Virus record (IMG/VR): IMGVR_UViG_3300047382_000480
Location: 1 to 64,000 of that record
From: a virus
DNA: 64,000 nt
Reading direction: 5' to 3' (one strand)
The translations under genes were made by a program, and so were the position numbers. Positions 12,642 to 64,000 of the stretch are shown here, one piece after another (position 1 is the stretch's first letter; every line of letters begins with the position of its first letter). A model generated the notes under the pieces. It had not been told where the DNA came from. It saw only the letters and a program-made list of their open reading frames with translations, and did not search any database.

Positions 12642-12649
12642 TATTTATA
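12642..12649 (-). promoter_or_regulatory. T4-type late promoter
   Basis: TATAAATA. Confidence 0.65.
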
Positions 12650-20412: not shown

Positions 20413-21204
20413 TTAAGAATCTGGGAATTCAGTATCTTCAGCATCACCCATTGTTGAAGCAGAACCATCTGCTAGAGCAACAAGTGTTTCGTATTGCTTG
20501 CGTTCAGTAACGCCATCAACAGCGAATGTCAAAGCAGCAGCACCACCGCCACCAAGTTGCGCATCAGCAACTGTAACAACTTCATTGTTGGCAAAACCTG
20601 TTCCTGGATTCAATACAGTTACAGTTGCAGCACCAGTTGATGGAGCAACAACAATTTGGAACCTAGCACCAACGCCATTTGAAGCAGTTGAGTACATGCT
20701 TGGGTCTAGGATGTAAGTTCCTGCAGCACGATCAGTATCAGCTGCACCGATTGTATCAACAGCAGCAATACGACCTGATGCTACAGTTTTAACATTAACC
20801 CATCCTGTTTGAGCAATACCTTTACCATCGGCAGTTGCAGCAGCAACCTCCGCTTGATCAACACCAAAAATAGTTTCAGAAGAAACTCCTGATGTACTAT
20901 TGGCTTTGATCATACCGCTTGGCTTTTCACTTAGAGTGAAGTTTTCACCATCACTAATTGCTGACAATGATGGTGTATTGGATGTATCTGCATCTACTAC
21001 AGTACATGCTGTATTGGAAGCAATAGCTGTGATTCTAAAGTCAATAGAATTGGCAGTGAGAATATCACCGACTGCAGCTTCCGTTGTGAAGGCAGTTCCT
21101 GTCCCTGTCACAGCTCCAGGTGTTTGTAAATTGGTAATGGATGACCTATACCAAGCAATTGTGCCTGTTGACGTTTTATCGTCTTTTATTCCCCAACCTG
21201 ACAT
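20413..21204 (-). CDS. Putative virion structural protein
   Basis: VTGTGTAFT, T/A/G-rich; late promoter upstream. Confidence 0.65.
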   Translation of the reverse strand: MSGWGIKDDKTSTGTIAWYRSSITNLQTPGAVTGTGTAFTTEAAVGDILTANSIDFRITAIASNTACTVVDADTSNTPSLSAISDGENFTLSEKPSGMIKANSTSGVSSETIFGVDQAEVAAATADGKGIAQTGWVNVKTVASGRIAAVDTIGAADTDRAAGTYILDPSMYSTASNGVGARFQIVVAPSTGAATVTVLNPGTGFANNEVVTVADAQLGGGGAAALTFAVDGVTERKQYETLVALADGSASTMGDAEDTEFPDS

Positions 21205-21256: not shown

Positions 21257-22813
21257 TTATTTAAGATGACTTTGAAATGAATCGTGTGAGTCATGCGCAC
21301 TATGCATCTTCTCTTTATCAGCAGGTTTCGCTTTCATATATTTAGACATATATTTATGAGCGTCTGCCTTACTTACATTGTGAGAAGATCCATCTTTAAA
21401 TTTAACTGGCTTGTCTATTGTTACAGCTTTGCGTAGTTGCATAACTATATGACCGCCATGATCGTCTTTCTTTACGGCAGGTTTTGCAGGCGTTGAGTCC
21501 TTTTTAGTTGGAGCCAAACCCCTAGAATCAGCACGAGCATCCCTTTTTGCGTCTGCTGCTGCACTTTCTTTCTGTGCTGCTTGATAACCCTTATCAGTTT
21601 CCTTTTCTTGACGAGCCTTCATATTTGAAAGACGTTGCAGTTTTCGTTGCGTCTTTGCTCGCATTTCTTCAGAATCACTCGCCATATCTTCGTTAACACC
21701 ATGGACTGTGTACTTACCACCAACTTTATCTACCTTTTGCGCCTTCATGGCATGTGCTTTAGCTTTGTCAGATGTCATTGGTTTTGAGGAATTTACATGT
21801 TTACCCTTGCTGTCAGTATATTTTACAACATGGGTTGCGTCTTCGTTTGCAGTCTTCAATGCCTTTTGGGCTCCAGGATGGTTAGATAATCCTTTTTTGA
21901 TTTTCTCCATCTTTTTCACAGCACCAGTCATATCACCACCCTTGTGGCGTTTATCAAAGGCGATACCTTTAGCCATTTTGACTTGCTTGCCTGTGATATA
22001 TTCTTTGATGTCTGCTTCTTCTTTTGCCTTTTTCTTTTTTCCGTAACCTTCTTCAATTGATTCGTCTTTTGCTTTATGAGACGCATCAACTTTATTGAAA
22101 AATTCTTTCTTTTCGTCGTCCGACATATCTTTGAGAGACTTACCTGCTTTCTTCAGCATTGCGTCGAATTTGGCTTTGTATCCATCTTTGGCAGATGCTT
22201 TCATCATACCATACTCATCTAGTGAGTCTTCAACAACACTAGCATTTTTGCCGTGCTTCACAACATATTTTCCAGAAACGTCTTTGTGTGCAACACCTTT
22301 GGTTTTCTTAGCATGAATATCTGCAGTTTTCTTATCAAAGGTTCCAGCATTATGGTAATCTTGACCTTTCTCGCCTTTAGCACCAACATAGTTTTGTTCT
22401 TCAACTTCTTCTCGGCTATCCTTACCAATCATAGACCAACCTTGTTTTTTCATTCGGTCAGCAGTGGCGCCATCAACCTTACGTTGGAAAGAACCCTTCT
22501 TCATAACATAGATTTCTTCGCCTTCGACGATAGTTTCTTCAGTTTGATAGCGAGTTTTTTGAGTATGTTGTTTTGCCTTTTGGAAGACTTGACTGTCACC
22601 AGTAACGATGTAAAGCATAGATTGCATTACTTTGTTTACTGCTTCTCTTTCTTGTGGGTTCAATGCTTTACCAGATTGCATTTTATCCAACCCTCTATGT
22701 AACATAGGGAGTTGTGAAGAAGGAAGCATTCCTTGACGCACGAGCTGATCTAACTTTTTGTAATCTGCAGCTTCAGCAAGTAACTTTTCTCGGATTTCTT
22801 TCTCAAGTGACAT
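21257..22813 (-). CDS. Lys/Glu-rich modular late protein, putative internal head protein
   Basis: 518 aa; late promoter; many (I/L/V)xE sites separating basic modules. Confidence 0.6.
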   Translation of the reverse strand: MSLEKEIREKLLAEAADYKKLDQLVRQGMLPSSQLPMLHRGLDKMQSGKALNPQEREAVNKVMQSMLYIVTGDSQVFQKAKQHTQKTRYQTEETIVEGEEIYVMKKGSFQRKVDGATADRMKKQGWSMIGKDSREEVEEQNYVGAKGEKGQDYHNAGTFDKKTADIHAKKTKGVAHKDVSGKYVVKHGKNASVVEDSLDEYGMMKASAKDGYKAKFDAMLKKAGKSLKDMSDDEKKEFFNKVDASHKAKDESIEEGYGKKKKAKEEADIKEYITGKQVKMAKGIAFDKRHKGGDMTGAVKKMEKIKKGLSNHPGAQKALKTANEDATHVVKYTDSKGKHVNSSKPMTSDKAKAHAMKAQKVDKVGGKYTVHGVNEDMASDSEEMRAKTQRKLQRLSNMKARQEKETDKGYQAAQKESAAADAKRDARADSRGLAPTKKDSTPAKPAVKKDDHGGHIVMQLRKAVTIDKPVKFKDGSSHNVSKADAHKYMSKYMKAKPADKEKMHSAHDSHDSFQSHLK

Positions 22814-22850
22814 TATAGTAATCTCCTAGGATAATTCTTTTTATAATTAT

Positions 22851-22858
22851 TATTTATA
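22851..22858 (-). promoter_or_regulatory. T4-type late promoter
   Basis: TATAAATA. Confidence 0.7.
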
Positions 22859-22893
22859 AACTCAACTTCTTCCACTTATACTTATACGCATAA

Positions 22894-22922
22894 AGAAAAA
22901 GCCCCATAAGGGGCTTCTTTTT
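22894..22922. terminator. Intrinsic terminator, possibly bidirectional
   Basis: AAGCCCC-ATAA-GGGGCTT stem flanked by A and T tracts. Confidence 0.75.
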
Positions 22923-22946
22923 GGTTCAATCAAACATTTAAATGTA

Positions 22947-23540
22947 CTAATCTGCGACCTTTGAGGTAGACCATTGACGACAAGACCAATAACCTGCTGT
23001 AGTCTTATCCTTCTTATTAGCACAATCGTGTCTTGCTCTAAAGTTTGCTCGTCTTCCTGGATCGTCTCGTTTGATTTCCATATTAGGATCACCGAAACGA
23101 ACTACTTTAATTTTCTTGGTTGATGGATCGCGAACATACACTTTGAATTTTTTATTTGGGTTTTCAGAAGTTCGGATAATTTTATTTAATTTAACACCTT
23201 TCTTTTCTCCGTCTTCCATAATGATCGCATCTTCTATATCCAACACTTCATCAAGATGTGAGCAATCATCGCAGCAAGAATCTTCCAAAACCATATTATC
23301 ATCATACTCAGTGTGGGCAAGATCAGTATCGTGATTCAAACCACCTTTTTTCTTTTTGGTGATGAATGCGTTTACACGAGCATGTCCCCATTGTTGTGGA
23401 GTAGTTCCTGGTCGGTGACCAGTCTTCCATGCAGCCATACCTCGATTGTAAACTTTACGCAATGTAGAAACTGAGATACCTGATTTCTTTGCTTTATCAG
23501 CTAACGCACCTTCAATTAAATGATCTTTAAAATTGTTCAT
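22947..23540 (-). CDS. Two-module basic protein, putative internal head protein
   Basis: MNNFKDHLIE start; modules KAKKSGIS...QQWGHARVN and KKFKVYV...FRARHDC...AGYWSC. Confidence 0.65.
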   Translation of the reverse strand: MNNFKDHLIEGALADKAKKSGISVSTLRKVYNRGMAAWKTGHRPGTTPQQWGHARVNAFITKKKKGGLNHDTDLAHTEYDDNMVLEDSCCDDCSHLDEVLDIEDAIIMEDGEKKGVKLNKIIRTSENPNKKFKVYVRDPSTKKIKVVRFGDPNMEIKRDDPGRRANFRARHDCANKKDKTTAGYWSCRQWSTSKVAD

Positions 23541-26044
23541 TTCTTTGCCTTTTTGATCTTAAATTTCTTTGCTTTATATTTAGAAACACTACCGCCCTTC
23601 TTAACAGAAAACTTCTTCGCTTTCTGAGAGGTCATTGTTCCACGTTTGTTTTTAAGACGATTCAATTCAACCTTGCGCACCTGAGGTATAAGCCTCACAG
23701 CGATACGAGAAATAAGGGGTTGGAACCTTTTAATCATAGTTTCTAGTCTTGCCTTTTCTGCTGGTGGAAGACCTGCCTTATCTCTTCCGCGAAGAAGACG
23801 CTTATACATCATATTTCTAGCACCACGAGTAGCACGCATTTTAATACGAGTGTTACCGCCTGCACGTTTCGATGCACGAATGCGTGCGAGTTTTAATTTC
23901 GTTTTGTTTCTTCTTGCAGCCTGACGACGTTTAATTCTTCCCAGAGGTGTTAATGCTTCTGTGACTTGAATGTCATCTTCGTAATTACCTTCTTCGTCAT
24001 CTACCTCTACTTCTACCACTTCATCGGGTTCTAATATTCCAAGGTCTACCATATCATCAATCGTGACGTTGTCTGCCTGAAGCATCATATCTCGTATATC
24101 TTTTTCAGTCAATGCAGTGTCCATTGGCTCAGCGACAATTGGTTTTCCATTATCCTCTAGATTCTCAAGAATACCTGCGTACAAATTATTCACGTGTTCT
24201 ATTGCATCAGCAACACTTTCTCTGACAATGTATCCATCTCCGCGATCTTTATACCCCTCGGGAATGTCGACACACGCTTTACGTTGTCTACAGTAATACT
24301 TACCTTCGCCACACATTATACCATCTTCTTCGCAGATACTTTTCTCGTCTACTCTATAATGTCTTTTTGAGGATGTTTTATTTTTCTTAGTAGTTTTTCC
24401 TGGCTCTCCTGGAGTCATCGCTTTCATATATGCAGTAGCTTCAGGAGTTCCTCGTTCGTACTTGGCTTCTTCACCTAATAGGTCGACTGCCTGTTTACCA
24501 AGAATCTTTGTATTGAATTTGTTTGTCAAATTAAACTTGCGAAGTAGTTTTCCTGCATAAAAATACACATCATGCCTTGCTCTACCGCCTCGACTTTTTT
24601 TATCTTTCTTATAGTCGTCAAGAACTGATTTAGCCATTTGAGCATATTTGTCTTTATAGATCGTCTTGGATTTAACGATATCTGACATTGAAACTTCATC
24701 TAAGGAAGTTGATCTAGGAAGTTCGTTCTCGTCAATTTTAATCTTATCGAATACTTTGGTATCTTTCACACGTTGTTTCGAGACACGTTTCTGTACGTTG
24801 CGAAGTTTACCTATTTTGGGTAGAGCCATTGGGTCTTTCTTAGTCTTTGGATCAACCAAGACATCTTCTACCTTTTCTTTAACATCTTTCTTGTCGTGGA
24901 CGTAACCGAGTTTGTCGAGTCTAACGTGGTCTGCATACCTTTTCGCCATGATACCCTTTCCAGTCTTTGGGTGGTACATCATGTGTGGCTCAAACCCTTC
25001 TTCGTCCATCATACGTTGAACAAACTTTGTATACTTTGAAGGTTTAGTCTTCGCAGTTGCATCTCCAGGTGCTGGTTTATATGCCTTTGGATTACTATCA
25101 GACATTTTCGATTGGCGTTTGAATTGTGCATCCCGCTTTTGTTTGGTAGATTTACTCAAACCTGCGTGGTACTTGGCAGGTTGACTGCCTTTCCTCTTAG
25201 CGATATCGTTATCCTGTCTTACTTCTGTTTTCTCATCCATAGCATCCAACTTTGCTGCGACTGCCATTTGGCGTCGTTTCTTTTTATTCTTACCCTTGAA
25301 TTGTGGTGCATCAGACTTCTGGAAATCATCAATCCACTTACCCATTGAATCAGATGCGTCTAATTTTTCATTCATTCTGTTTCTAGAAGACTTTTGATCA
25401 GATATCCACTTCTTAGCAATATGTGATTGTATAGGTGAGTCAACAAACCTCTTAACATTTCTATATGCTTGTAACATATTAGCTTCTGTGTTTACGTTAT
25501 CACTGTTATCAACGATAAACATATTTTCTTTGAAGATCTGTTGAAATGCGCCCATATTATTCTGAACACCTTTCCACATCATTGTTACTTTTTCATCTGG
25601 GAGTTGTCTTGGTCTTTTTCTATTTCGTTCAATTGCAGTTTCTTTATCAGTATTTACAAATACTATCGCAGTATCATAGCCAAGACTCTTTAGTTTTTCG
25701 TTTTGGGTTTTAATCTTTGCGAGATTTTTACCAGTTCCGTCAATGACAAGACCCAAACGACCTTTTACAGCAATCTTTTGTTGAAGAGCAGTCAGTGCTT
25801 TAGCTGTATTTCTTATTTGCTGACCTCTAGGAGAATATATATTTTCTGGAGTTGGCGTCATCGCCTCTCTAGCAAGCAAGGTTTCAAAAAAGTTGTCTGA
25901 ATTTATCAGCTTCAAACCTTGTGCTTGTAATGCAGTATTACCAACAACAAAAGACTTACCGCTTCCAGGACCACCTGCAAGGAATACTGCCTTGAAAATG
26001 GCTGGGTCGTTTACGCCTTCTGAAATGAAGTCCTTAAACTCCAT
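23537..26044 (-). CDS. Large modular protein with N-terminal P-loop kinase domain (zeta-toxin/AAA_33-like)
   Basis: Start MEFKDFISE after GGAG SD; KAVFLAGGPGSGKS Walker A, INSD, LVIDGT, RNRKRPR lid; then basic modules. Confidence 0.7.
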   Translation of the reverse strand: MEFKDFISEGVNDPAIFKAVFLAGGPGSGKSFVVGNTALQAQGLKLINSDNFFETLLAREAMTPTPENIYSPRGQQIRNTAKALTALQQKIAVKGRLGLVIDGTGKNLAKIKTQNEKLKSLGYDTAIVFVNTDKETAIERNRKRPRQLPDEKVTMMWKGVQNNMGAFQQIFKENMFIVDNSDNVNTEANMLQAYRNVKRFVDSPIQSHIAKKWISDQKSSRNRMNEKLDASDSMGKWIDDFQKSDAPQFKGKNKKKRRQMAVAAKLDAMDEKTEVRQDNDIAKRKGSQPAKYHAGLSKSTKQKRDAQFKRQSKMSDSNPKAYKPAPGDATAKTKPSKYTKFVQRMMDEEGFEPHMMYHPKTGKGIMAKRYADHVRLDKLGYVHDKKDVKEKVEDVLVDPKTKKDPMALPKIGKLRNVQKRVSKQRVKDTKVFDKIKIDENELPRSTSLDEVSMSDIVKSKTIYKDKYAQMAKSVLDDYKKDKKSRGGRARHDVYFYAGKLLRKFNLTNKFNTKILGKQAVDLLGEEAKYERGTPEATAYMKAMTPGEPGKTTKKNKTSSKRHYRVDEKSICEEDGIMCGEGKYYCRQRKACVDIPEGYKDRGDGYIVRESVADAIEHVNNLYAGILENLEDNGKPIVAEPMDTALTEKDIRDMMLQADNVTIDDMVDLGILEPDEVVEVEVDDEEGNYEDDIQVTEALTPLGRIKRRQAARRNKTKLKLARIRASKRAGGNTRIKMRATRGARNMMYKRLLRGRDKAGLPPAEKARLETMIKRFQPLISRIAVRLIPQVRKVELNRLKNKRGTMTSQKAKKFSVKKGGSVSKYKAKKFKIKKAKK

Positions 26045-26333
26045 GACTATCTCTCCACCTTTGAACATCTTTCTTAGCATCATTGACAGTTTTGTATGCT
26101 GTAACAGGATGTCTGGGTCTAAATGATGGAGGATGATTATCAAAAATTGTAGGCATCACTTTCTGACTACCATCTCTGTTCTTACGAGTACTATCCATAC
26201 CAGACATACGAATCTCAAACTTACCATCTGACGTCACGTGCTTGTAAATCATCCTACGTGCACTGTCGTATCCATCTGGTTTTTTGATCCAAGTGATTCT
26301 GGATTCTTCTAAGTAAGTTTTAAATGGCTTCAT
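26034..26333 (-). CDS. Small basic late protein, putative internal protein
   Basis: MKPFKTYLEE start; TATAAATA at 26339-26346. Confidence 0.65.
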   Translation of the reverse strand: MKPFKTYLEESRITWIKKPDGYDSARRMIYKHVTSDGKFEIRMSGMDSTRKNRDGSQKVMPTIFDNHPPSFRPRHPVTAYKTVNDAKKDVQRWRDSHGV

Positions 26334-26338
26334 AGTCT

Positions 26339-26346
26339 TATTTATA
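26339..26346 (-). promoter_or_regulatory. T4-type late promoter
   Basis: TATAAATA. Confidence 0.7.
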
Positions 26347-26347
26347 A

Positions 26348-26812
26348 TTATTCGGGAAGTCCAACACTGTATTGAGTCTTTCCGTCAACACGCTGAGCAG
26401 TTAGGCATTGTTTACGATTATCTTCTGGGCTTACATAAGAAACGTGAACCCACCCTGAAGAAGGATCGCCCTCAGTATAAAATTCGGAAATGAGTTGATC
26501 AAACTCTAGATTGTCTCGGATCCATTGAGCAACAACTAAATTATCTGCTTTGTCGCATTCAATATCAACCGCTTGACCTTTACTATGTTGAGAACGAGGA
26601 GAACCACCGATAGCTTCATTTAGTGCAGGAGAACGATACCCTGAGTTGATACGAGTTATGCCAAACTCATCTCTGACGTGTTGTACTACCTGTGTGAACA
26701 ACTCCTGTGCAGCACGCATATGCTCGCCTTCTGGAGTATTATCGATACCCAAACGAGTTGCAGTCTGTGACTTTGTAAACTCTTTAAGTGAGAAATTTTT
26801 ACTTAGTTTCAT
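26348..26812 (-). CDS. Peptidase M15A-family endolysin candidate
   Basis: LSKNFSLKEF, INSGYRS, SQHSKGQAVD, WVHVS Zn ligands. Confidence 0.85.
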   Translation of the reverse strand: MKLSKNFSLKEFTKSQTATRLGIDNTPEGEHMRAAQELFTQVVQHVRDEFGITRINSGYRSPALNEAIGGSPRSQHSKGQAVDIECDKADNLVVAQWIRDNLEFDQLISEFYTEGDPSSGWVHVSYVSPEDNRKQCLTAQRVDGKTQYSVGLPE

Positions 26813-26814
26813 TA

Positions 26815-27402
26815 TTATTCCTTGATATATTGTGAAAATGATACATACGTTTCTTTCAATTGCATCCCATCTCGGACATCATTGAACAATTCTTTCGCTC
26901 CACGATATCCAGCAGGTAATCCACGCTTAAATCCGTTGAAGTCATTATTCTTTGCTAGGAGTCTCATCTTACTTGCACTCATACCAGTAACGCCATCAGC
27001 ATCAGGATCTCTCTCACCCGCAGATACAACTTTTACAGTCTTGAATGTGAAATCTTTTCCGTTGTATTTATCGAGCAATCGTTGGAAATCAGGTACGCGA
27101 TCAGAACCAGCAATCATTATTACATTATCATACTTGCCAGTCAACAATTTAAGTTGAGAGATGAAATTAGGATTCATTTTATCTGATAATTTAAAATTAG
27201 TATTTGGGAACATACCCTTTAGATGTTTCAACTTTAGTTTCGGATCTAGTGGGTTTTTATTTTTGTCAAAAGAGTGGCTGGCGATAATAAGGTGGTCTGC
27301 GCGATTAGTCGTTGCAACACGCTTTACCTTTGATACAAGTTTACCATGCCCAACTGTGGGAGGATTCATCCTACCAAATGCAAATACTAATGTTTTACTC
27401 AT
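26815..27402 (-). CDS. Cytidylyltransferase-like (HxGH-superfamily) nucleotidyltransferase
   Basis: FGRMNPPTVGH, KNPL, AGSDR, GMSASKMR. Confidence 0.85.
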   Translation of the reverse strand: MSKTLVFAFGRMNPPTVGHGKLVSKVKRVATTNRADHLIIASHSFDKNKNPLDPKLKLKHLKGMFPNTNFKLSDKMNPNFISQLKLLTGKYDNVIMIAGSDRVPDFQRLLDKYNGKDFTFKTVKVVSAGERDPDADGVTGMSASKMRLLAKNNDFNGFKRGLPAGYRGAKELFNDVRDGMQLKETYVSFSQYIKE

Positions 27403-28643
27403 CTGTCCCATGCCTTTATAGCTGTGAAGTTGTTGAAGCTGAATTCCATTCTGTCTACAAGTTTGACCGCATTACCGCCCACACGATCAATAGCAACATA
27501 CCCCTCTGGATTTGTGACCTTGAAACCATTTGAAGTTCTAATAAATGTTCCCATACCCTTTACGCTGTCTAATTTTGTAACAATCATATTTTTGGCTTGA
27601 ACAATACCAGACATGAATTCAAATATATTTCCAAGTAATTCTTGATATTCATTAGCAAGTTTAATTGCAGCTTCTTTCTTATCAGAAAGTGCCTTTTGCG
27701 ATTTCTCGGTTTTTAATTTGGCGATTTCTTTATCATACTTGTCGGCAACAAACGCTGAGTACCCTGAAGCGTGAGATCTTTTCAAATCTTTTTGTTGTCT
27801 GACTTTAGAGTTTATATATGTCTTCACGCTCGCTCCAAGCATCTTACCAGTAAACCCTGCTTGATAGCGTAGAAATGAATTTAGTTTCGCGGAGTCTATT
27901 TTTCTGAATGTAGTGCCAACACCAGAAAGAACTGCAGTAATTGAAGCAGTTTCTGTTTGAGTGAAGGTTGCTTTACCAGATACATCTTTGTATGTTGCAT
28001 CGTCCATCCAGATAGAAGGAGATTTACGAAGATTGTTTATATTAGCACCAAACGATGCTTGCATTTCTGGTAGAGAGCGTCCAGAATATGACGTGTGCCA
28101 AACTACACCAATCTTTGCTTTTTTAATCTTGACGTCAAGTGGCGTTCCCTGAGGAACTGCATAGACGATTGTGTTAGGTTGGAAAGTTGTGTGACGTTGC
28201 CCATCAATCATATCGGACTCTAGATCACTTGATGTAAACATCAAATCACCTTGGAGAACATTAGTAATGCCCAACTTCGAGAACTCTCGAAGGGCAATAC
28301 TGAATTTGGGTTTCAGAGACGCAGGTAGTTTTGGGTCAGAAGAAATATCTGATTGCGTCTTATAAAGGAGTGGAGTTTTATTGAAAACTGATTTTTTAGC
28401 GACAAAAAATTTGCCGTCAGAAGGATCTATCCCTGCAAAAATGGCTGGTGCGCCATCCCACTTAACTGTCATGTTAATAGAGGATCGCGAATGACCAGCC
28501 AACATATCTCTGAGGGATCTGATGAAATTGATAGAACCTCTCGCCCCACCAATGCCATGATTGAGGATTTCGTCCTCAATATGCTCTAGATGCAGATTCT
28601 TTCCTTGTGCATCTTCATTCAGAAATGTCCTCAGACTTCGCAT
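27399..28643 (-). CDS. Phage protein with ligase/nucleotidyltransferase-like motifs (DUF6267-like)
   Basis: NLHLEHIED, TVKWDGAPA, QGDLMF, PEGYVA, KLVDRMEFS; MRSLRTFLNE start. Confidence 0.7.
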   Translation of the reverse strand: MRSLRTFLNEDAQGKNLHLEHIEDEILNHGIGGARGSINFIRSLRDMLAGHSRSSINMTVKWDGAPAIFAGIDPSDGKFFVAKKSVFNKTPLLYKTQSDISSDPKLPASLKPKFSIALREFSKLGITNVLQGDLMFTSSDLESDMIDGQRHTTFQPNTIVYAVPQGTPLDVKIKKAKIGVVWHTSYSGRSLPEMQASFGANINNLRKSPSIWMDDATYKDVSGKATFTQTETASITAVLSGVGTTFRKIDSAKLNSFLRYQAGFTGKMLGASVKTYINSKVRQQKDLKRSHASGYSAFVADKYDKEIAKLKTEKSQKALSDKKEAAIKLANEYQELLGNIFEFMSGIVQAKNMIVTKLDSVKGMGTFIRTSNGFKVTNPEGYVAIDRVGGNAVKLVDRMEFSFNNFTAIKAWDR

Positions 28644-28893
28644 TATTTTTTACACTCTTTTTTAATTTGTTAATTTCTTTATTCTTATGACTCAATTCTT
28701 CTTGAGCATTAATTAACGCTTCGTTTAACTCTTGGTTCGCTTTAAGAAGTTCGTTGTATTTATTTGCAATAACTTTACCTTGAGCCAACGCACCAAGTCT
28801 TTCCTTTGTCAAAGATGTGATGAGTGATGAAAGCATCTCTTCATATTCTACGTTTATCTCACCTTCAAGAGGATTTGTTTTTTCTTCAGCCAT
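28615..28893 (-). CDS. Small coiled-coil protein
   Basis: 92 aa; late promoter at 28906-28913. Confidence 0.6.
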   Translation of the reverse strand: MAEEKTNPLEGEINVEYEEMLSSLITSLTKERLGALAQGKVIANKYNELLKANQELNEALINAQEELSHKNKEINKLKKSVKNNAKSEDISE

Positions 28894-28905
28894 TATCTTA
28901 TCCTA

Positions 28906-28913
28906 TATTTATA
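28906..28913 (-). promoter_or_regulatory. T4-type late promoter
   Basis: TATAAATA. Confidence 0.65.
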
Positions 28914-29249
28914 TCAGTTGTCTTTTGCATTTTTGGTTGAAATATCGCCCATTCTTTTCTGGACGTTTTGAACAGCTTCTCTCACGGCAACAGACTTTTT
29001 GTCTTTTTTACCATAAGTGTTAGCAAGTTTTGAGTTCGGGTTGGCATCAGAAATTTTAGAAAGGACTTCTTTGAAACCGCCATCATTCTTAACTCTGTCA
29101 CCCAAACCCCCCTGATTCAACGCAGGAGCATTAATGTGCACTTGCTTCAAATGAGGGTTATCTTTAAGAAACTGGTCAAACCCTGAGATACTTACAATCC
29201 TTTCTTCGACCTCACCAGTCTCTTCATTCATAAAATCATACAAGGGCAT
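28914..29249 (-). CDS. FmdB-like phage protein (Cys-less)
   Basis: MPLYDF...TGEVEE...FLKDNPHL...GFKEVLSKI. Confidence 0.65.
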   Translation of the reverse strand: MPLYDFMNEETGEVEERIVSISGFDQFLKDNPHLKQVHINAPALNQGGLGDRVKNDGGFKEVLSKISDANPNSKLANTYGKKDKKSVAVREAVQNVQKRMGDISTKNAKDN

Positions 29250-29407
29250 CAGTTTTTATCCTTTTCTGCATCTAATATTTGTTGAGATGCCTTTACCCAA
29301 ACATCGACAGCACGAGTAGCAGTCTTATCTGAAAAATTATCTACTACCCACTGCGCCACATTTTTACTTTTACCATGTGGACATAATGTCCAAGTTAAAT
29401 CTTCCAT
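29249..29407 (-). CDS. Hypothetical protein (52 aa)
   Basis: Manual translation MEDLTWTLCPHGKSKNVAQW...; start/stop overlaps with both neighbours. Confidence 0.6.
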   Translation of the reverse strand: MEDLTWTLCPHGKSKNVAQWVVDNFSDKTATRAVDVWVKASQQILDAEKDKN

Positions 29408-29706
29408 TAGTGTTTATCCTCTTCAGCCATTTCAAACACTGCATTAGTAATAATTGTAGGGACAACTAATGCTATGTGAACACCGATCGCTACTGGGATG
29501 CTATAACCCAACCAGCCAATATAATAGATCGCAATCAAACCAAAGAATCCTGACCACATAACAAACAGAGCCATCAGTAGATAACCTTGCATTACTGGGT
29601 CAGGAATAAATCTAAGAGGATTGAACCTCAAGTCCATTATCATACGATACATTTCAGAAACTTTTTTAAACATATTATAATTCCTCGTCAAATAATCGTT
29701 GCTCAT
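29407..29706 (-). CDS. Small membrane protein
   Basis: Two hydrophobic helices; MDLRFNPLRFIPD motif. Confidence 0.65.
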   Translation of the reverse strand: MSNDYLTRNYNMFKKVSEMYRMIMDLRFNPLRFIPDPVMQGYLLMALFVMWSGFFGLIAIYYIGWLGYSIPVAIGVHIALVVPTIITNAVFEMAEEDKH

Positions 29707-29938
29707 TTAATTCATCAGTCATACTAATCAATTCAGAATCAGTGAAGTGATCAATAGAACCATTGTGCCGTACACCATAACACCCTATCCAAGCATCAGT
29801 AAATGCCACCTCTATAGCGTGACGAGCAAATTGCTCAATCGTTTCGACACCTTTATGGCGCCAATAGGTGGCAGTGTTCTGAAGTTTAAAAACTCTGTTT
29901 GCATTCAATTCATCAATATAATCAAGTAGTGCATCCAT
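29675..29938 (-). CDS. Hypothetical early protein
   Basis: 87 aa, GAGG SD, follows sigma70 promoter. Confidence 0.65.
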   Translation of the reverse strand: MDALLDYIDELNANRVFKLQNTATYWRHKGVETIEQFARHAIEVAFTDAWIGCYGVRHNGSIDHFTDSELISMTDELNEQRLFDEEL

Positions 29939-58713: not shown

Positions 58714-58721
58714 TATTTATA
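58714..58721 (-). promoter_or_regulatory. T4-type late promoter
   Basis: TATAAATA. Confidence 0.7.
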
Positions 58722-58783: not shown

Positions 58784-60037
58784 TTACATAAGGTTTGTAA
58801 CCTTAACAGAACGATAGTACTGGTTACGATCAGCAGTGAACGTATCAGCATCAGTTGTGCCGTTAGCCTGTGTAACAAATGGGTTAGCAACCATGCCGTA
58901 ACGAGTCTTAAAGCCGATTTTTGGCTGGAAGTCTGTTGGGTCAATAGCGCGAACTTGTTGTAAAGGTACATATGGGCAGTAGAAAATACCAGCATCATAT
59001 GCGCTAGTTCCTTTATAACCAACTGTGTAGAACTGAGAAGAAGCACCAGTGTTAGCTGAGTATGGATCGATGTATACTTTATAACGACCATTCAATACAC
59101 CAGCAAAAGTGTTACCAGTATCATCAACGTTCAAGTCAGTGTTTAGTGCTGGAGCGTAATCAAGTACACCAGCCATTGCTAGAGCAGAAGCAACATCAGA
59201 AGAACAGATGATGAAGTTACCTTTACCGCGACGAGTGTCTTGAGCAATCACGTTAGCATCACGTTCGATGTTGAACAATAAGCCTTTGAAACGCTCAACT
59301 GACCAACGACCATTTGAATCAACGTCAAGGTCGAAAGTACCAGCAGTAGCAGTAGAAGCAGAACCAGTCTTAGCAACTTTGTAGATGGTTCGTACAACTT
59401 CGCGGTTGATTTCAGCCAAGATTTCTTGTGAAAGAATGTTTGACAATTCGCTCTCAGCATCAAGACCATGGATTGCTTTAAGATCTTGAGCAAGTTCGAT
59501 TGTGTACTCAGCTTTCAATGCGCGAGTCTTAGCAGTAACAGTAGTTTTCTCGATTGAGAACGCCATTTCTGCAGGGTTCTTACTTTCACCAGTAGCTGTA
59601 GACATACCAGCACCAGTTGTGTAAGTACCATCAACAGGGTTAGAACCAGCGTGAGTAGGTGAAGAGTTACCAGAGAAGTCTGTGTCAGCTTCGTTGAATA
59701 GAGCCTCATCACCAGTTTGGCTAGTGTAGTGTGACTTCATAGCAAAGATTAGCCCAGTAGGACCAGTCATTGGCTGAACACCACATACATCGTATGCCAT
59801 TAAGTTAGGAAGCGCACGACGAACAAGGCTGATCAATACTGGATCGTAGTTATCGACTGATGCGCCAGTTGCGTTAGCTGATTCAGACAACTGAGCTTTC
59901 TCTTCTTTAAGAGCTTTCTCTTGGTTTTCAAGAACAACAGCAGTCACATTTCTGCGGTGTGCGTCCTTAATTTGAGGAAGTTCTGGGTGATCCAATACGG
60001 GACCCCATTTTTCCATTTGTGATTCTGAAAGATACAT
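58784..60037 (-). CDS. 23: Major capsid protein gp23
   Basis: LISLVRR, GVQPMTGPTGLIFA, ELAQDLKAIHGLDAE, YCPYVPL, GFKTRYG. Confidence 0.98.
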   Translation of the reverse strand: MYLSESQMEKWGPVLDHPELPQIKDAHRRNVTAVVLENQEKALKEEKAQLSESANATGASVDNYDPVLISLVRRALPNLMAYDVCGVQPMTGPTGLIFAMKSHYTSQTGDEALFNEADTDFSGNSSPTHAGSNPVDGTYTTGAGMSTATGESKNPAEMAFSIEKTTVTAKTRALKAEYTIELAQDLKAIHGLDAESELSNILSQEILAEINREVVRTIYKVAKTGSASTATAGTFDLDVDSNGRWSVERFKGLLFNIERDANVIAQDTRRGKGNFIICSSDVASALAMAGVLDYAPALNTDLNVDDTGNTFAGVLNGRYKVYIDPYSANTGASSQFYTVGYKGTSAYDAGIFYCPYVPLQQVRAIDPTDFQPKIGFKTRYGMVANPFVTQANGTTDADTFTADRNQYYRSVKVTNLM

Positions 60038-60082
60038 CTTTCGTCTCCTTGCTTTTTAGTTATTAGTTGTGTTAACTGTTAT

Positions 60083-60090
60083 TATTTATA
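60083..60090 (-). promoter_or_regulatory. T4-type late promoter
   Basis: TATAAATA. Confidence 0.8.
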
Positions 60091-60095
60091 AAAAA

Positions 60096-61277
60096 TTATC
60101 TTTTTACCGATTTAGAAATCGCTTGAGCATAAATGCTGATTGGCGAAGTTGAATCTTCACTGATAACGACTGAATCATCATCAATCAGTTTATCTTCTTC
60201 AATTACAGCTTTTTGTGTTGGGAAATAATTTTCCTTAATCACAGCCAGCTTGTCAGAGTAATCGTTATCAAACTCAACGTCTTCAACGAGTTTCGCAAAC
60301 TTTTCAGCTTCAGTTACAGTCAAGTCAGCAGTCGCTTCTTTGAGTGCAGCATCTTTTGATAGGTCTACATTGGCAGCAGACAAGGCAACTTTTTCGTCAG
60401 TTGATTCGTCCAGCTTGGTTTTAAGTGAATTAATTTCACTCTGCATTTCGCCCAGAACATCATACTTTTCTTCAGGAATGTCGATGTAATGCTCGGCAAA
60501 AACTTCTTTCAAGGAGCCGATGAAGGATTCAGAGATCTCGTTGCGCAGTCCACGCTCAATAGCGAGTTCGTTTTCTTTCATCCAGTTCTCAGCTACATAG
60601 TTCAGATAACCATCAATTTTCTGTACCATACCTTCCACGAATGTTTCTTGTGCAAGTGCAGCTTCTTCGGCTAGTTCAGTTTTAATTTCTTCGATTTCAG
60701 AAGCGACGCGAGCCGTAACAACTGCTTCAAATAAACCTGCAGCCTTAACTTTAAACTCTTCGGATAGATGCTCTTCGTCAGCGAATAAATTGGTCATGTC
60801 GTCTTGGAATAATGTATCTTCTTCGATAACTTCTTCAACTTCTTCAGCAGACTCTTCTAATTCAGCTTCAACATCTTCGTCTGTGATTTCTTCTTCAAGA
60901 ACTTCGTCTTCTGATTCAGCGTCTTCAGCTTTAACATCAGCTTTAGTTCCAGGCATATTAACCTGACCTTCAGTCGATGCAGTTTCAGAAGAACCCTGTG
61001 TTGGTGAGGTTTGATCTCCAGCTTCGGAAGATGCAGCAGATTTACTGCCGTCTTTCTTTGCTTTTGAAGAGGCAGATTTACCTGCATCAGCTTTTAGACC
61101 ATCGGATTCAAGCGAGTCACTTGAAGCAGTTTCTGATGAGCCTTGTGCTGGTGCAGAAGCATCGCCTTGTGATTTGTCTGCAGGTCGTGCAGCAGACTCG
61201 TCTAGTTCATTAACTTCTTCGGTTACCATTTCTGGCTTACCCTTGAGAAGTTCTCTGATTTTGCTTTCTACAGCCAT
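60096..61277 (-). CDS. 22: Prohead core scaffold gp22
   Basis: Acidic; LSEEFK.KA..LFEA, YLNYVAENW, IKENYF; synteny. Confidence 0.92.
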   Translation of the reverse strand: MAVESKIRELLKGKPEMVTEEVNELDESAARPADKSQGDASAPAQGSSETASSDSLESDGLKADAGKSASSKAKKDGSKSAASSEAGDQTSPTQGSSETASTEGQVNMPGTKADVKAEDAESEDEVLEEEITDEDVEAELEESAEEVEEVIEEDTLFQDDMTNLFADEEHLSEEFKVKAAGLFEAVVTARVASEIEEIKTELAEEAALAQETFVEGMVQKIDGYLNYVAENWMKENELAIERGLRNEISESFIGSLKEVFAEHYIDIPEEKYDVLGEMQSEINSLKTKLDESTDEKVALSAANVDLSKDAALKEATADLTVTEAEKFAKLVEDVEFDNDYSDKLAVIKENYFPTQKAVIEEDKLIDDDSVVISEDSTSPISIYAQAISKSVKR

Positions 61278-61310
61278 TTTATTCTCCTTGTAGAGTTCGT
61301 TTGCTAGTTT

Positions 61311-61318
61311 TATTTATA
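61311..61318 (-). promoter_or_regulatory. T4-type late promoter
   Basis: TATAAATA. Confidence 0.8.
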
Positions 61319-61323
61319 ATAAA

Positions 61324-61977
61324 TTAAATCTTTGAAACCTTATTTAGGAATGAGCTAAACACCGCCATCTTGGTGGCTTCTAGTTCATGGGAAGAGGCTT
61401 CCTTAATTATTTTCTGAGCCTGTTCCATTTCCCTTGCTTGCCAAATACCATCAACCATAACCCACTCACGGCTTTCCATAATCCCTTGAACAAAGGCATC
61501 TGGAGCGGATGGATCTGATACAATATCGGCAGCAGTTGCAAGCATGAAATCATCTTGGACTTCACTTATACCCGACTTCTCTCGGATAGAACCCAAACCA
61601 CGAGAACTAACACCGAGTTGTGCGCCTGCTTCAATTAAATTTGCAGCAATCTTACCCATTGGAGTATCAAGAACTTTCGCCTTACCGATCCAATTATCTC
61701 CATCTTCTTTCAGAGAGACAATCATATGAGAGACACGATCCAGATTTACTGTTGGACCATCTGGGTGACCAAGTTCTCCCAATGCTCTGTTCTTGTCGAT
61801 TTGTTCTGCTGTATAACGTGCAACTTCTTTTTGCATAACCTCTTTAGGATATACACGACCATTGCGGTTTTTTAAATTGGATTGTAAGAAAACTCCTTCA
61901 ATGAAGAGTTCTCTTTTTCCATCTTTTTCTTCTGAGATGTATTGAACATTCTCGTTAATTTCTTTTATAAGTCTCAT
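61324..61977 (-). CDS. 21: Prohead protease gp21
   Basis: NRNGRVY, ALGELGHP, GVSSRGLGS, DIVSDPSAPDA. Confidence 0.96.
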   Translation of the reverse strand: MRLIKEINENVQYISEEKDGKRELFIEGVFLQSNLKNRNGRVYPKEVMQKEVARYTAEQIDKNRALGELGHPDGPTVNLDRVSHMIVSLKEDGDNWIGKAKVLDTPMGKIAANLIEAGAQLGVSSRGLGSIREKSGISEVQDDFMLATAADIVSDPSAPDAFVQGIMESREWVMVDGIWQAREMEQAQKIIKEASSHELEATKMAVFSSFLNKVSKI

Positions 61978-62369
61978 TAGCCTAGATCTCCTTGGTTCTG
62001 ATGCTGTTGCGAACCATAACCAGAAACCTTAGAAGTTTGCACTATAACTGTCCCTGCACCACCTGTAACCGAGACAACAATATCTGACGCTTGTTCTCTG
62101 ATGTCGGCAAACCCATAAAATTCTAATTTGCCTGACATGTGCATAGTATGTAACAACACGCTATTTCTTGTTACAGTTGCTGTGGCGCCACTCCCTAGTG
62201 TCCAATAAAGTGCACTGATGTTGACCAATGGAGTAGAAACAGTTTCTGATGATTTCTTTAGGTCAGCTGATATATCGATAGTTTGGGCTGCAGGTGTGCT
62301 TCCGTTTTCAGAAACAACAGTGACACCTTGAACCTGTGTTAACTTTAAATTTGCTTTGGTGGACGCCAT
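61977..62369 (-). CDS. Hypothetical protein in head module
   Basis: 130 aa, coupled to gp21. Confidence 0.65.
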   Translation of the reverse strand: MASTKANLKLTQVQGVTVVSENGSTPAAQTIDISADLKKSSETVSTPLVNISALYWTLGSGATATVTRNSVLLHTMHMSGKLEFYGFADIREQASDIVVSVTGGAGTVIVQTSKVSGYGSQQHQNQGDLG

Positions 62370-62375
62370 TTTTTA

Positions 62376-62744
62376 TTATTCTCCTACAGGTTCAAGTTCC
62401 CAAACAGGAACACGTTTTAAAGATTCTTTAAACATAACCTCAGCAACCGCATCAACCCCTTCCCCATAAGTAGCAAGAACTGTTCCTTCGCCTTCTTTAT
62501 GGTGCATTATTGTAGCGTTTGGAGCCATATAAAACTTTTCTGTATTTGAGCTTCCTTGAGTTGGAGGAGTTTTATCCCCTTCTTCCCCTTTATCTGCTGC
62601 ACCATGATTAGCTGTAGGTTCTTCAGCTTCTGGTTTGTTGACACATTCTTCTTCCTCGGTAATCATTTCTTCCGAAACGATTTCTTCCCCTGTGAGGATT
62701 TTAAAGACTGTGTCTACTAGGTCTTGTGGTATACTTGGTTTCAT
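62376..62744 (-). CDS. Acidic head-module protein (possible prohead core component)
   Basis: Multiple xxEE sites; shares GDxxxPxQGSS motif with gp22. Confidence 0.6.
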   Translation of the reverse strand: MKPSIPQDLVDTVFKILTGEEIVSEEMITEEEECVNKPEAEEPTANHGAADKGEEGDKTPPTQGSSNTEKFYMAPNATIMHHKEGEGTVLATYGEGVDAVAEVMFKESLKRVPVWELEPVGE

Positions 62745-62748
62745 TTTC

Positions 62749-63027
62749 TTATTCCGTTTCTGGTTCTGCCTCGGCAGTAGTTTCTGGAACTGCGACTTCT
62801 CCCGCAGTCGGTTCTGGTAAATCTATTTCTTCGACCGATTGATTAAACATACCAGAAGCAACTTCAGCCTTTCTATCAGCTACCATTGAATCGGCACGAT
62901 CATTCATCATGCTATTAAAAGTATCCTGAGCATCTGTCAGTTTACCATCTTTCCACTGATCCATCATTTTACGGACAGCATCAGCACGTTCATTTTCTAC
63001 ATTGCGTTCTGCAGTTTCTTCACTCAT
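62749..63027 (-). CDS. Small acidic prohead core protein (gp67-like position)
   Basis: 92 aa, acidic, directly after portal. Confidence 0.55.
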   Translation of the reverse strand: MSEETAERNVENERADAVRKMMDQWKDGKLTDAQDTFNSMMNDRADSMVADRKAEVASGMFNQSVEEIDLPEPTAGEVAVPETTAEAEPETE

Positions 63028-63029
63028 AA

Positions 63030-64000
63030 TTACTCACCTTCTTGGTCTTGATATTGTTGCGGTTCGGCTTGAAGTGCCTCCCCCTCTATTTGTTTATTGA
63101 TGACATTTATTTCATCATCTCGCATCTTAAGAATTTCTTTTTGCACATATTCTTTAGAGAAGTATTCGCCTACATAATTTGAAAGACCATTTAAAACTTC
63201 TACTCGGCTTCGTAGGATTTCTTGTTCTTTTGACTCAGTATAATATGCGTCAGAAGAATAAACATACCTTATGCCGTCTCTTAGTTCTGGCCATTCGGCT
63301 TCGGTTATAACACCCTTTAGAATAAGTTGCGTTTTCAGCAAATCGTCAAATAATGCTGAAAAACGTCTACGAAGTTTAGCGATAAACTTGGTAAACTTTA
63401 ATTCGTCTCGGCTGATTTCGGCACTACGACCAAAATTTAACCCTTGTTGGGCACCTTCTAATCTAGAGATCGGGACATTCAACGCTTGATATAATTTGCG
63501 TTGGAAATAGTCTACGTCACCAGTTTCTCCAAGGTTTTGACCTCCAGGAAGTGTTTGAATCTCTGTACCTCGACCGCCTTCGCGTCTTGGCATCCAGAAG
63601 TCTTCAAGCATAGACATAAACTTCTTGTCGTCTCTAATCTCTCCCGATTCGCCATCATAAACCAATTTGTTTCGATAGCGGTTCATTATATCTTTTAGAT
63701 ACTGTTCTGCCTTCATTGTTGGGAGATTACCAGTATCAACATAAAACACTCTGCGTTCTGGAGCACGAGTAATACGATATACAACAACAGCATTCTCCAT
63801 CATTCTCAGCTGATTCGCTGGTCTGATTGCTTTGTGTAAATATGACAAAGGTATATTTTTATCTTGATCTAACAAACCTGAAGGAATATATGTAATTGCA
63901 TCCTTCGATATTTTTAGGGATTTATCGTTAGCGTTCCCTGCTTTATACATTCCAGGTTTGTTCGCTATTCCCTTGTCATCGTAAATGAAATACTCATTTA
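63030..64000 (-). CDS. 20: Portal protein gp20, 5' part outside window
   Basis: SYLHKAI, YRITRAPERR, MLEDFWMPRREGGRGTEI, RDELKF. Confidence 0.96.
   Translation of the reverse strand, partial: NEYFIYDDKGIANKPGMYKAGNANDKSLKISKDAITYIPSGLLDQDKNIPLSYLHKAIRPANQLRMMENAVVVYRITRAPERRVFYVDTGNLPTMKAEQYLKDIMNRYRNKLVYDGESGEIRDDKKFMSMLEDFWMPRREGGRGTEIQTLPGGQNLGETGDVDYFQRKLYQALNVPISRLEGAQQGLNFGRSAEISRDELKFTKFIAKLRRRFSALFDDLLKTQLILKGVITEAEWPELRDGIRYVYSSDAYYTESKEQEILRSRVEVLNGLSNYVGEYFSKEYVQKEILKMRDDEINVINKQIEGEALQAEPQQYQDQEGE

Follow-up and report, generated by a model that had tools for sequence, protein, structure and literature searches.

Candidate capsid-cargo polyproteins with prohead-protease-type joints in a marine T4-like phage genome

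The internal proteins of phage T4 are a diverse set with only the capsid targeting sequence (CTS) in common, as summarized in the pertinent passages of PMC3012670. The account of T4 head processing in PMC9026906 gives the first 10 residues as enough for loading, and assigns residues 4 and 7 to targeting and residues 8 and 10 to processing, which is blocked by an Asp at position 10. In the giant phages phiKZ (gp175), 201phi2-1 and SPN3US (gp245), a gp21-related protease cuts after the Glu of a short motif, makes several cuts in long regions and acts on many internal head proteins, according to the portions of PMC9026906 and PMC10052503 that treat head proteolysis; in SPN3US, 13 of the 14 cuts mapped remove N-terminal propeptides and do not separate functional modules (PMC10052503, same portions). 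Polyvalent proteins, as outlined in the main account of them by Iyer et al. (2017, PMC5512222), string many unrelated, shuffled domains in one polypeptide and have been proposed to be packaged and delivered with DNA, by analogy with viral polyproteins; release is there ascribed to embedded peptidase domains, and a paucity of such proteins in cyanobacteria and archaea is noted. The present work concerns three minus-strand genes whose products, here called p835, p197 and p518 (835, 197 and 518 residues), lie in a stretch of 64,000 nucleotides (the window; positions 1 to 64,000 of IMG/VR virus record IMGVR_UViG_3300047382_000480). Based on their sequences, on structure models and on analogy with T4, it is proposed here with moderate confidence that they are capsid-loaded cargo polyproteins cut by gp21, a polyprotein variant of the system formed by the internal proteins of T4.

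The window belongs to a T4-like phage genome of 138,660 bp, nearly all of whose genes are on the minus strand. By sequence the source is a marine T4-like phage related to Pelagibacter phage HTVC008M and Methylophilales phage Melnitz, which are the nearest named relatives of the region; a nucleotide search of the region against phage collections and records gave no match. PHROG matches in the genome include the portal, gp21 protease, gp22 scaffold, gp23 capsid protein, tail tube, and replication and nucleotide-metabolism genes, with the gp21, gp22 and gp23 genes all inside the window. The features established directly by the analysis are the anatomy and conservation of the proteins, the position of the linkers, the similarity of the leaders to that of T4, the promoter motifs and the presence of the protease. 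A set of 80 related IMG/VR loci was used for comparison, with p835, p197 and p518 searched by blastp against the open reading frames (ORFs) of these loci. Of 8000 candidates scored, 791 belong to the p835 family at E ≤ 1e-5, and column conservation was measured on 120 listed of these 791 relatives, reduced to 27 non-redundant sequences; the p518 family has 757 relatives. Genome-wide leader scans were run on 178 crude gene calls.

The N-termini of the proteins encoded in this region resemble those of T4 internal proteins. In T4 (NC_000866), IPII and IPIII begin MKTYQEFIAE/A and IPI begins MKTFKEF...ITE/A (a stroke here and below follows the Glu of the motif). All four mapped T4 positions are kept in kind in p99 (a small protein encoded just upstream of p835), in p197, which has His at position 7, and in a neighboring DUF6267 protein; in p835 the same four-position pattern is shifted one residue earlier. 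The leader of p518 differs in being longer, with 14 residues ending in LAE/A, and is conserved in its family. A regular expression built from the four T4 CTS positions matched 5 of the 178 gene calls and, at its true start, p835, where shuffled N-termini would give 0.45 matches; all six matching leaders of the genome fall within 22947-29938 (~7 kb). Two of these six matches, MPLYDFMNE/E and MDALLDYIDE/L (28914-29249 and 29675-29938, minus strand), may be due to chance because relatives of the first lack the pattern. When scored against the T4 CTS, p99 ranks first among the 178 gene calls with a score of 17, and p835 at its true start scores 20. Across the 80 related loci, scores of at least 14 were found in 43 of 293 distinct genes of the cluster (from the ligase-like DUF6267 gene to +9 kb) and in 4 of 314 upstream genes, giving a Fisher value of 8e-11 that overstates the significance because the sequences are related. 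Examples from these loci are MKTFNDFIVE/G, MKTFTQFIIE/S and MKTFSEFINE/R, and DUF6267 orthologues reach scores of 19. An [ILM]-x-E with its Glu at residue 10 is present in 38 of 43 p99 relatives, and the leader site of p835, at residue 9, is kept in all 24 family members that have that column. By their sequences, then, five genes look like T4-internal-protein-type capsid cargo: p99, p835, p197, p518 and the upstream DUF6267 ligase-like gene.

Synechococcus phage Sf-CH8 also has a leader almost identical to that of T4, its gene 73 (L086 3916-4227, 103 residues) starting MKSYKQFMSE/S. This gene is located between the terminase subunit genes and adjoins a modular DUF6321 protein.

Following its leader, p835 carries a folded enzyme and then a 600-residue tail rich in Lys and Arg (Table 1). 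The leader is the best-scoring 10-mer of the protein (20 against residues 2-11 of T4 IPII/IPIII), and residues 1-10 have a predicted local distance difference test (pLDDT) value below 50. The 217-aa domain behind it is, by profile and structural-model matches, a member of the Zeta_toxin/AAA_33 P-loop kinases with a polynucleotide-kinase-like fold: the Pfam profiles Zeta_toxin (8.9e-11; 42 bits against a curated cut-off of 22.3) and AAA_33 (1.2e-10; 42.2 bits against 27) span residues 18-222, and Foldseek ranks highest two polynucleotide kinases, 4gp7 from Clostridium thermocellum (TMt 0.72) and 1ly1, the Pnk of T4 (TMt 0.75). The three proteins had been described in the first-pass annotation as chains of small basic modules, and this description suits most of the units; the first unit of p835, being the kinase, departs from it.

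The p835 tail resolves into separable homology blocks (~224-271, 272-348 and 349-390), as do parts of p197 (6-75 and 104-190) and p518 (264-325), and the order of these blocks and the protein that carries them vary between phages, the commonest position being behind a cytidyltransferase. Module B recurs at other positions and within other proteins of the related loci, with a hydrophobic-x-Glu motif (hxE, counted as [ILVM]xE) upstream in 51 of 59 distinct windows around its landmark against 14 expected. In HTVC008M, Melnitz and many other loci, module C is instead part of a fusion with the cytidyltransferase; an hxE motif marks the start of the module in 42 of 49 windows and the end in 43 of 47. 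Module D is found within Melnitz gene 20, between IKE/D and MDE/A. The Cys-rich CGEGKYYC unit, an insertion flanked by sites, is present among seven aligned homologues only in p835 and in locus L004; the CGEGKYYC...C unit forms the N-terminus of cyanophage protein PSSM4_160 (T4-GC119) and lies near the N-terminus of PRSM4_194 (T4-GC656), with VKE ending both. In p518, the module at 272-325 serves elsewhere as the N-terminal unit of other proteins, behind a leader of the form MTRYxKTMxEALxEIRE/G. The C-terminal module of p835 is rich in invariant positions across 46 sequences, and blocks homologous to it occur in Sinorhizobium phiM12-type phages, there behind LGE/A. Directly ahead of this net +45 module lies the net -24 stretch, with an invariant VTE/A (27/27) between the two (residues 610-835, 23540-24217); the acidic stretch at 610-696 could be an internal neutralizer of the +45 module, freed by cleavage.

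Some of these joints correspond to gene boundaries in other phages. The kinase is a stand-alone gene of 220-222 residues in HTVC008M and Melnitz, stopping a few residues before the position of p835 residue 226. The DUF5824 module has its own leader here, in p197, and in L004, where the DUF5824 and DUF5754 modules are separate genes, the first beginning MKTFNDFIVE/G; elsewhere it follows IDE/T or KIE/G inside larger proteins, as in the cytidyltransferase proteins of HTVC008M and Melnitz, the p197 counterpart of this joint being the N-terminal LIE/G. In the same two phages the DUF5754 block is preceded by LEE/A, MME/S or IME/D. Judged from these comparisons, gene ends in some phages appear equivalent to joints in others for the kinase and for DUF5824, and the joints seem to let modules be inserted, dropped or moved between carriers in evolution.

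Every hydrophobic-x-Glu tripeptide that had been listed in the three proteins is indeed present in the sequence, and P3 is Ile, Leu, Val or Met at all listed sites. In p835, 18 [ILVM]xE motifs were counted against 10.3 in 5000 shuffles (P 0.006), compared with 4 against 1.6 in p197 (P 0.058) and 9 against 6.1 in p518 (P 0.13). The pooled count of 31 against 18.2 (1.7x) exceeds the ratio found for the other 75 proteins of the window (378 against 322.9, 1.17x); the gp22 scaffold, used as a positive control, has 28 sites (7.1 per 100 aa, z 5.0). It had been proposed that a site frequency no higher than composition predicts would tell against processing. The excess over composition is slight (31 against 18.2) and the density is no higher than the window mean, and the proposal barely survives this comparison. 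By count alone the sites are weak evidence; by position they are strongly more than chance.

Conserved hxE columns are found at all 12 proposed p835 boundaries in the 27 relatives. The fractions at successive sites are 9 (24/24), 226 (14/20), 271 (7/13), 348 (7/11), 390 (16/17), 439 (11/16), 450 (18/27), 525 (14/18), 567 (7/11), 572 (19/21), 596 (10/17), 609 (17/19), 627 (7/13) and 696 (27/27), a number of conserved columns that is not in itself discriminating, controls giving 13 for x-Asp and 23 for x-Lys. In an alignment of seven full-length p835 homologues, the sites before the kinase and before the basic C-terminal module are present in 7/7 and the site ahead of the 'KHEWGTPEGT' unit in 6/6; indels and insertions are flanked by sites, and motifs within the kinase domain are sporadic. 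A site lies within 5 residues of 32 of the 47 indel junctions in the p835 family against 9.1 expected (3.5x), with controls at 0 to 2.4x. For the module borders themselves, sequence landmarks of nine different modules were followed through the ORFs of the loci and 240 family proteins, and 282 of the 315 distinct windows contain hxE, where 84 would be expected (3.4x), compared with 1.3x for hxD, 0.9x for hxK, 1.0x for hxQ, 1.0x for hxS, 0.5x for hxN and 1.4x for polar-x-E. The expectation that modules would be shuffled across phages with borders at hydrophobic-x-Glu is thus borne out, both in the reshuffling and in the specificity of the borders for Glu.

The sites also lie where linkers are predicted. 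An AlphaFold2 model of p835 made from a 46-sequence alignment has a mean pLDDT of 67, with 229 of its 835 residues (27%) below 50 in 11 segments, among them 388-449, 526-532, 548-576 and 678-698. All proposed sites except 348 (11 of 12) are in such a segment or at most 1 residue from one, as are 14 of all 18 [ILVM]xE motifs. The p518 model (41 sequences, mean pLDDT 59, 200 of 518 residues or 39% below 50) places 7 of 8 proposed sites in low-confidence segments, the exception being IKE at 271. The first annotation had suggested structure prediction as a test of linker position, and the models place the sites in predicted linkers. The traits of a jointed polyprotein are accordingly seen in the alignments and models: a border motif conserved where its flanks vary, specific for Glu, and predicted to lie in linkers.

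The presumed cutter is a gp21-type prohead protease encoded in the window, 43% identical to T4 gp21 over 149 aa. T4 gp23 is recorded as cleaved by gp21, and its cut is located at LTE/A. The gp23 of this phage carries LSE/S aligned to that position and its gp22 holds the 28 sites counted above, in agreement with the earlier statement that protease-type sites occur in both. The window holds 14 copies of the late-promoter motif TATAAATA, where 3.9 would be expected, and 13 are on the coding strand. One copy precedes gp22 by 33 nt and another precedes gp23 by 45 nt; the motif also stands ahead of p518 and p99 (Table 1), 41 nt before the gene that follows p518 downstream and 12 nt before a small ORF ahead of the ligase-like gene. 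The p835 and p197 genes lack a TATAAATA of their own and follow p99 with overlapping stop and start codons, and the motifs are consistent with late expression of p518 and of the p99-p835-p197 run. In three minus-strand cases TATAAATA is only 4-5 nt upstream of the ATG: 58714-58721 (tail tube, 58709), 26339-26346 (p99) and 12642-12649 (an ORF starting at 12637). If the spacing of T4 late promoters applies, the transcription start in these cases would coincide with the ATG or adjoin it; late mRNAs may therefore be leaderless, or the starts may be mis-called.

Virion data bear on a relative of one neighboring gene. In the proteomic part of Sullivan et al. (2010, PMC3037559), T4-GC190 is reported as detected in purified virions of cyanophage S-SM1. 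T4-GC190 is the leader-bearing cyanophage orthologue of the cytidyltransferase encoded next to the cluster: the P-RSM4 version has a 78-residue N-terminal extension starting MKKFNAFLIE/A, the Syn9 version starts MKKFSAFLSE/A, and the cytidyltransferase of the present phage is 36% identical to the P-RSM4 protein (E 3e-40). GC71, the DUF6267 orthologue, bears no proteomic flag in the supplementary spreadsheet of the same paper (PMC3037559) and is leaderless in cyanophages. The arrangement is reversed in this genome, with leaders on the ligase-like and kinase proteins and none on the cytidyltransferase. This fits a rule in which modules ride on whichever protein bears the leader, although the cases are few.

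From these observations we infer targeting, cutting, retention, ejection and every biochemical role as follows. A CTS-like leader of ~10 residues would dock each protein into the prohead scaffolding core, after which the gp21-type protease would remove the leader behind its Glu and would also cut the multi-module proteins at hxE joints in disordered linkers. The products would be a polynucleotide-kinase-like enzyme of 217 residues, mostly basic pieces of 37-143 residues (pI 9-12) and short acidic spacers; the +45 C-terminal module would likewise be released, preceded by the -24 acidic stretch. The released proteins would stay with the packaged DNA and would probably enter the cell with it. A bolder version, which is tentative and somewhat doubtful, pictures a 'cargo bus' in abundant marine T4-like phages akin to pelagiphages, methylophages and cyanophages: the leader provides loading for whatever protein bears it, modules are plugged in and out at the joints, the virion delivers a mixture that differs from phage to phage, made up of polynucleotide-kinase-like and ligase-like enzymes together with a dozen DNA- or RNA-binding mini-proteins, and the acidic stretch neutralizes the +45 module until the VTE/A cut is made in the head.

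The proposed contents of this cargo gained little from further searches. No PDB sequence relatives were found for p835 440-835, p197 or the p518 family profile; a wide VIA-align search with the p518 model gave nothing at Z ≥ 5, with long-helix matches only; Foldseek matches of the p835 model in BFVD and PDB were dominated by the kinase domain and named no other module; and an NCBIfam search of the proteins gave nothing above cut-offs. The suggestion that the modules are DNA-binding, anti-defence or host-takeover effectors is hence not carried forward in its effector, anti-defence and host-takeover parts, no module other than the kinase having matched a family of known function.

A number of results count against the proposal of capsid-loaded cargo cut by gp21. 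The raw [ILVM]xE density of the three proteins, 2.0 per 100 aa, is that of the other 75 window proteins (2.09). At P1' the p835 sites vary (G, K, K, E, K, N, V, E, K, E, S, A), with a small residue only at 9, 609 and 696; the T4 sites read here have Ala. The internal linkers are unlike a whole CTS, and the idea that they are relics of complete leaders was rejected: only the N-terminal leaders are high-scoring 10-mers ending in hxE, other internal 10-mers scoring 14-15 and lacking a terminal hxE. The landmarks behind the 282 of 315 border windows were picked with the alignments already in view, and these windows are drawn from related sequences. An automated test of module-core borders (109 windows) gave hxE 50, hxK 42 and hxQ 38, counts that are uninformative because the conserved motif was absorbed into the 'core'. 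The junction test, applied to 24 cytidyltransferase-fusion proteins, gave 8 of 23 against 6.0 expected, with controls equally good, and a thin alignment may account for part of the low pLDDT. The S-SM1 result bears on the cluster by analogy only, because the cytidyltransferase of this phage is leaderless. The DUF5754-like module is also present in podoviruses, siphoviruses and a Nitrosopumilaceae spindle-shaped virus, and therefore works outside a gp21-processed polyprotein; these viruses are assumed to lack a T4-type protease. Finally, phiM12 gp159, with its basic C-terminal module after LGE/A, is annotated 'hypothetical', and its neighbor gp157 as 'virion structural protein'.

Three other explanations were weighed against this background. 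The leaders might bring the proteins into the head and be the only part removed, as in T4 IPIII and Alt, the joints staying uncut and the multi-module proteins being packaged whole. The linkers unlike a CTS and the failure of the junction test in the second family (8/23 against 6.0) speak for this, and the best-conserved sites with a small P1' are 9 (24/24), 609 (17/19) and 696 (27/27), most internal P1' residues being K, E, N or V. It is nevertheless unlikely in view of the specificity of the border motif for Glu (3.4x against 0.9-1.3x for Asp, Lys and Gln), the retention of that motif at nine unrelated module borders in linkers predicted to be exposed, and the cutting of scaffolds at many such sites by T4-type proteases, the gp22 of this phage having 28. 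The proteins could also be ordinary cytoplasmic late proteins that are never packaged, such as a kinase whose tails bind nucleic acid and Lys-rich proteins that bind DNA or RNA, with leaders and joints reflecting helix-capping or linker habits. This seems distinctly unlikely: the leaders match four functionally mapped T4 CTS positions and are confined to the cluster, yet are found on unrelated proteins, control motifs are not enriched at the borders, and a leader-bearing orthologue of a neighboring gene product was in S-SM1 virions. A site density equal to the window average, the occurrence of modules in other kinds of virus and the phiM12 homologue not annotated as a virion protein are the points that speak for it.

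Loading and cutting by gp21 are shared with a last explanation, in which the proteins are accessories of the prohead core or scaffold, like T4 gp22, gp67 and gp68, and their pieces are expelled or only condense DNA, nothing being delivered to the host. Many sites, acidic spacers and very basic pieces do recall scaffold proteins and internal peptides, and the +45 module resembles a DNA-condensing protein; the genes, however, lie ~35 kb from the head-gene block, one of the pieces is a folded kinase with enzymes as neighbors, and the site density is 2.0 per 100 aa against 7.1 for gp22, so that this explanation is considered very unlikely. Capsid-loaded cargo polyproteins cut by gp21 remain the explanation preferred here.

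The features of the region are collected in Table 1. In p197, the acidic linker holds the sites VLE/D, LDE/V and IME/D; the DUF5824 match (67.7 bits) is above the Pfam cut-off of 25 and the DUF5754 match (21.8 bits) is below that of 27.4. The DUF5754-like module (residues 110-197, 22950-23213) also has a small gene of its own, both in podoviruses and siphoviruses of the pelagiphage and roseophage groups and in spindle-shaped viruses of Nitrosopumilaceae, and one record calls it 'HVA1 family protein'. No family match was found for p518 in Pfam, profile libraries or NCBIfam. Judged by its sequence, p99 would be the protein here that comes closest to a T4 internal protein. The KWDG (KxDG) motif of the DUF6267 protein was read directly from the sequence, and we take it to be the mark of a ligase. 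The DUF6267 ligase-type protein, the HxGH nucleotidyltransferase and the polynucleotide-kinase-like domain sit together (26815-28643 and 25367-26017, minus strand), the same parts are joined in single proteins elsewhere (PHROG profiles 455 and 3041), and the trio resembles, by sequence, a kit for healing and sealing nucleic-acid ends. Homology of the 263-aa protein encoded downstream (20413-21204) to the virion-detected cyanophage S-layer-domain protein T4-GC425 was considered and found no support (BLASTP E 2.3).

Table 1. Coordinates of the candidate cargo genes, their modules and associated features (positions in the window unless a locus is named)
Feature	Position	Strand	Basis
p835 (835 aa)	23537-26044	minus	ATG at 26044 preceded by strong Shine-Dalgarno sequence
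p835 residues 1-9, MEFKDFISE/G, capsid-targeting-type leader ending in hxE	26018..26044	minus	leader score, conservation, low pLDDT
p835 residues 10-226, P-loop kinase domain, polynucleotide-kinase-like fold, ends MNE/K	25367..26017	minus	Pfam, Foldseek
p835 residues 227-271, module B (annotated DUF6321 in Sf-CH8 record), ends MDE/K	25232..25366	minus	homology blocks
p835 residues 272-348, module C, basic (net +12), ends MDE/E	25001..25231	minus	homology blocks
p835 residues 349-390, module D (GFEPHMMYHPKTGKG unit), ends VKE/K	24875..25000	minus	homology blocks
p835 residues 391-572, more basic units and linkers; sites IDE/N 439, LDE/V 450, LGE/E 525, VDE/K 567, ICE/E 572	24329..24874	minus	
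p835 residues 573-609, Cys-rich CGEGKYYC unit, ends VRE/S	24218..24328	minus	alignment of homologues
p835 residues 610-696, acidic segment (net -24), ends VTE/A	23957..24217	minus	charge, conservation
p835 residues 697-835, very basic C-terminal module (net +45, pI 12), helical	23540..23956	minus	charge, model
CGEGKYYC unit recurrences in cyanophage loci	L087 1619-3004; L088 7038-7361		
p197: leader MNNFKDHLIE/G; DUF5824 module 11-86; acidic Cys-rich linker 87-109; DUF5754-like module 110-197	22947..23540	minus	Pfam
p518: Lys-rich; 14-residue leader MSLEKEIREKLLAE/A; sites 97, 139, 195, 200, 255, 271, 375	21257..22813	minus	conserved leader, model
p99: small basic protein (mature part pI 10.3), leader MKPFKTYLEE/S	26034..26333	minus	leader score
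Peptidase_M15_3 protein annotated endolysin, no leader; between cytidyltransferase and p99, inside leader-tagged cluster	26348-26812	minus	Pfam/PHROG
Cytidylyltransferase-like protein (HxGH type), 198 residues, without leader and without appended modules here	26815..27411	minus	similarity to T4-GC190
DUF6267 protein, ligase-type KWDG motif, leader MRSLRTFLNE/D	27399..28643	minus	Pfam DUF6267 2.3e-102; leader regular-expression match
gp21-type prohead protease, presumed cutter	61324..61977	minus	Peptidase_S77 4.5e-40; phrog_207 4.9e-83
TATAAATA late-promoter motif	22851..22858	minus	37 nt upstream of p518 start
TATAAATA late-promoter motif	26339..26346	minus	5 nt upstream of p99 ATG (26333)
Head-gene block, portal to gp23	58784-63950		~35 kb away from cargo-candidate genes

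If the proposal is correct, loading and cutting of the T4 internal-protein type would be a general platform among some of the most abundant phages of the ocean and not a coliphage peculiarity, with a reach indicated by the 791 relatives of p835 and the 757 of p518. It would account for a conserved block of 'hypothetical' late genes by the primase/helicase region in pelagiphage-, methylophage- and cyanophage-type genomes, and would predict which proteins are the first to enter the host. The leader and joints together would provide a simple sequence rule for spotting injected proteins in metagenomes, and DNA-borne delivery of enzymes resembling nucleic-acid end-repair enzymes would become directly testable. 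In the literature, searches on capsid targeting sequence and internal-protein or polyprotein terms returned no account of marine T4-like phages with CTS-type leaders or with cargo joined at protease sites, searches on the DUF names gave matches that concern eukaryotic viruses only, and a term search of the pelagimyophage and Melnitz papers found no mention of the cluster.

Compared with the described systems, the cluster shares some traits with each. Giant-phage head proteases prefer a small P3, as in (A, S or G)-x-E; P3 here is instead hydrophobic (I, L, V, M), as in T4. The stringing of shuffled, unrelated units in one polypeptide recalls the polyvalent proteins. These differ in carrying their own peptidase domains, none of which is found by Pfam in p835, p197 or p518, and the joints here would be cut in trans. 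The Pfam matches are limited to the kinase in p835 and to DUF5824 and DUF5754 in p197, with none in p518, and do not include the effector domains characteristic of polyvalent proteins; the modules are mostly tiny basic units rather than recognizable enzymes. The T4 scaffold and core proteins gp22, gp67 and gp68 are substrates of the same protease with many hxE sites, of which the gp22 of this phage has 28, but the cluster proteins have a far lower site density, are basic rather than acidic, and are encoded outside the head-gene block. Relative to the T4 internal proteins, each polypeptide (197-835 residues) would carry several cargo units connected by cut-type joints, a polynucleotide-kinase-like enzyme and an adjoining ligase-like protein would belong to the cargo, and there is no sequence similarity beyond the leader. 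Shared with T4 IPI, IPII, IPIII and Alt are a leader of ~10 residues with an aromatic or hydrophobic residue at positions 4 and 7, Ile or Leu at 8 and Glu at 10; and, with the internal proteins at large, the use of one leader by otherwise unrelated proteins, small and basic mature parts, late-promoter motifs and an S77 protease in the genome. The first-pass annotation's view of the cluster as an undescribed system is accordingly overstated, and the arrangement is better described as the logic of the T4 internal proteins in polyprotein form.

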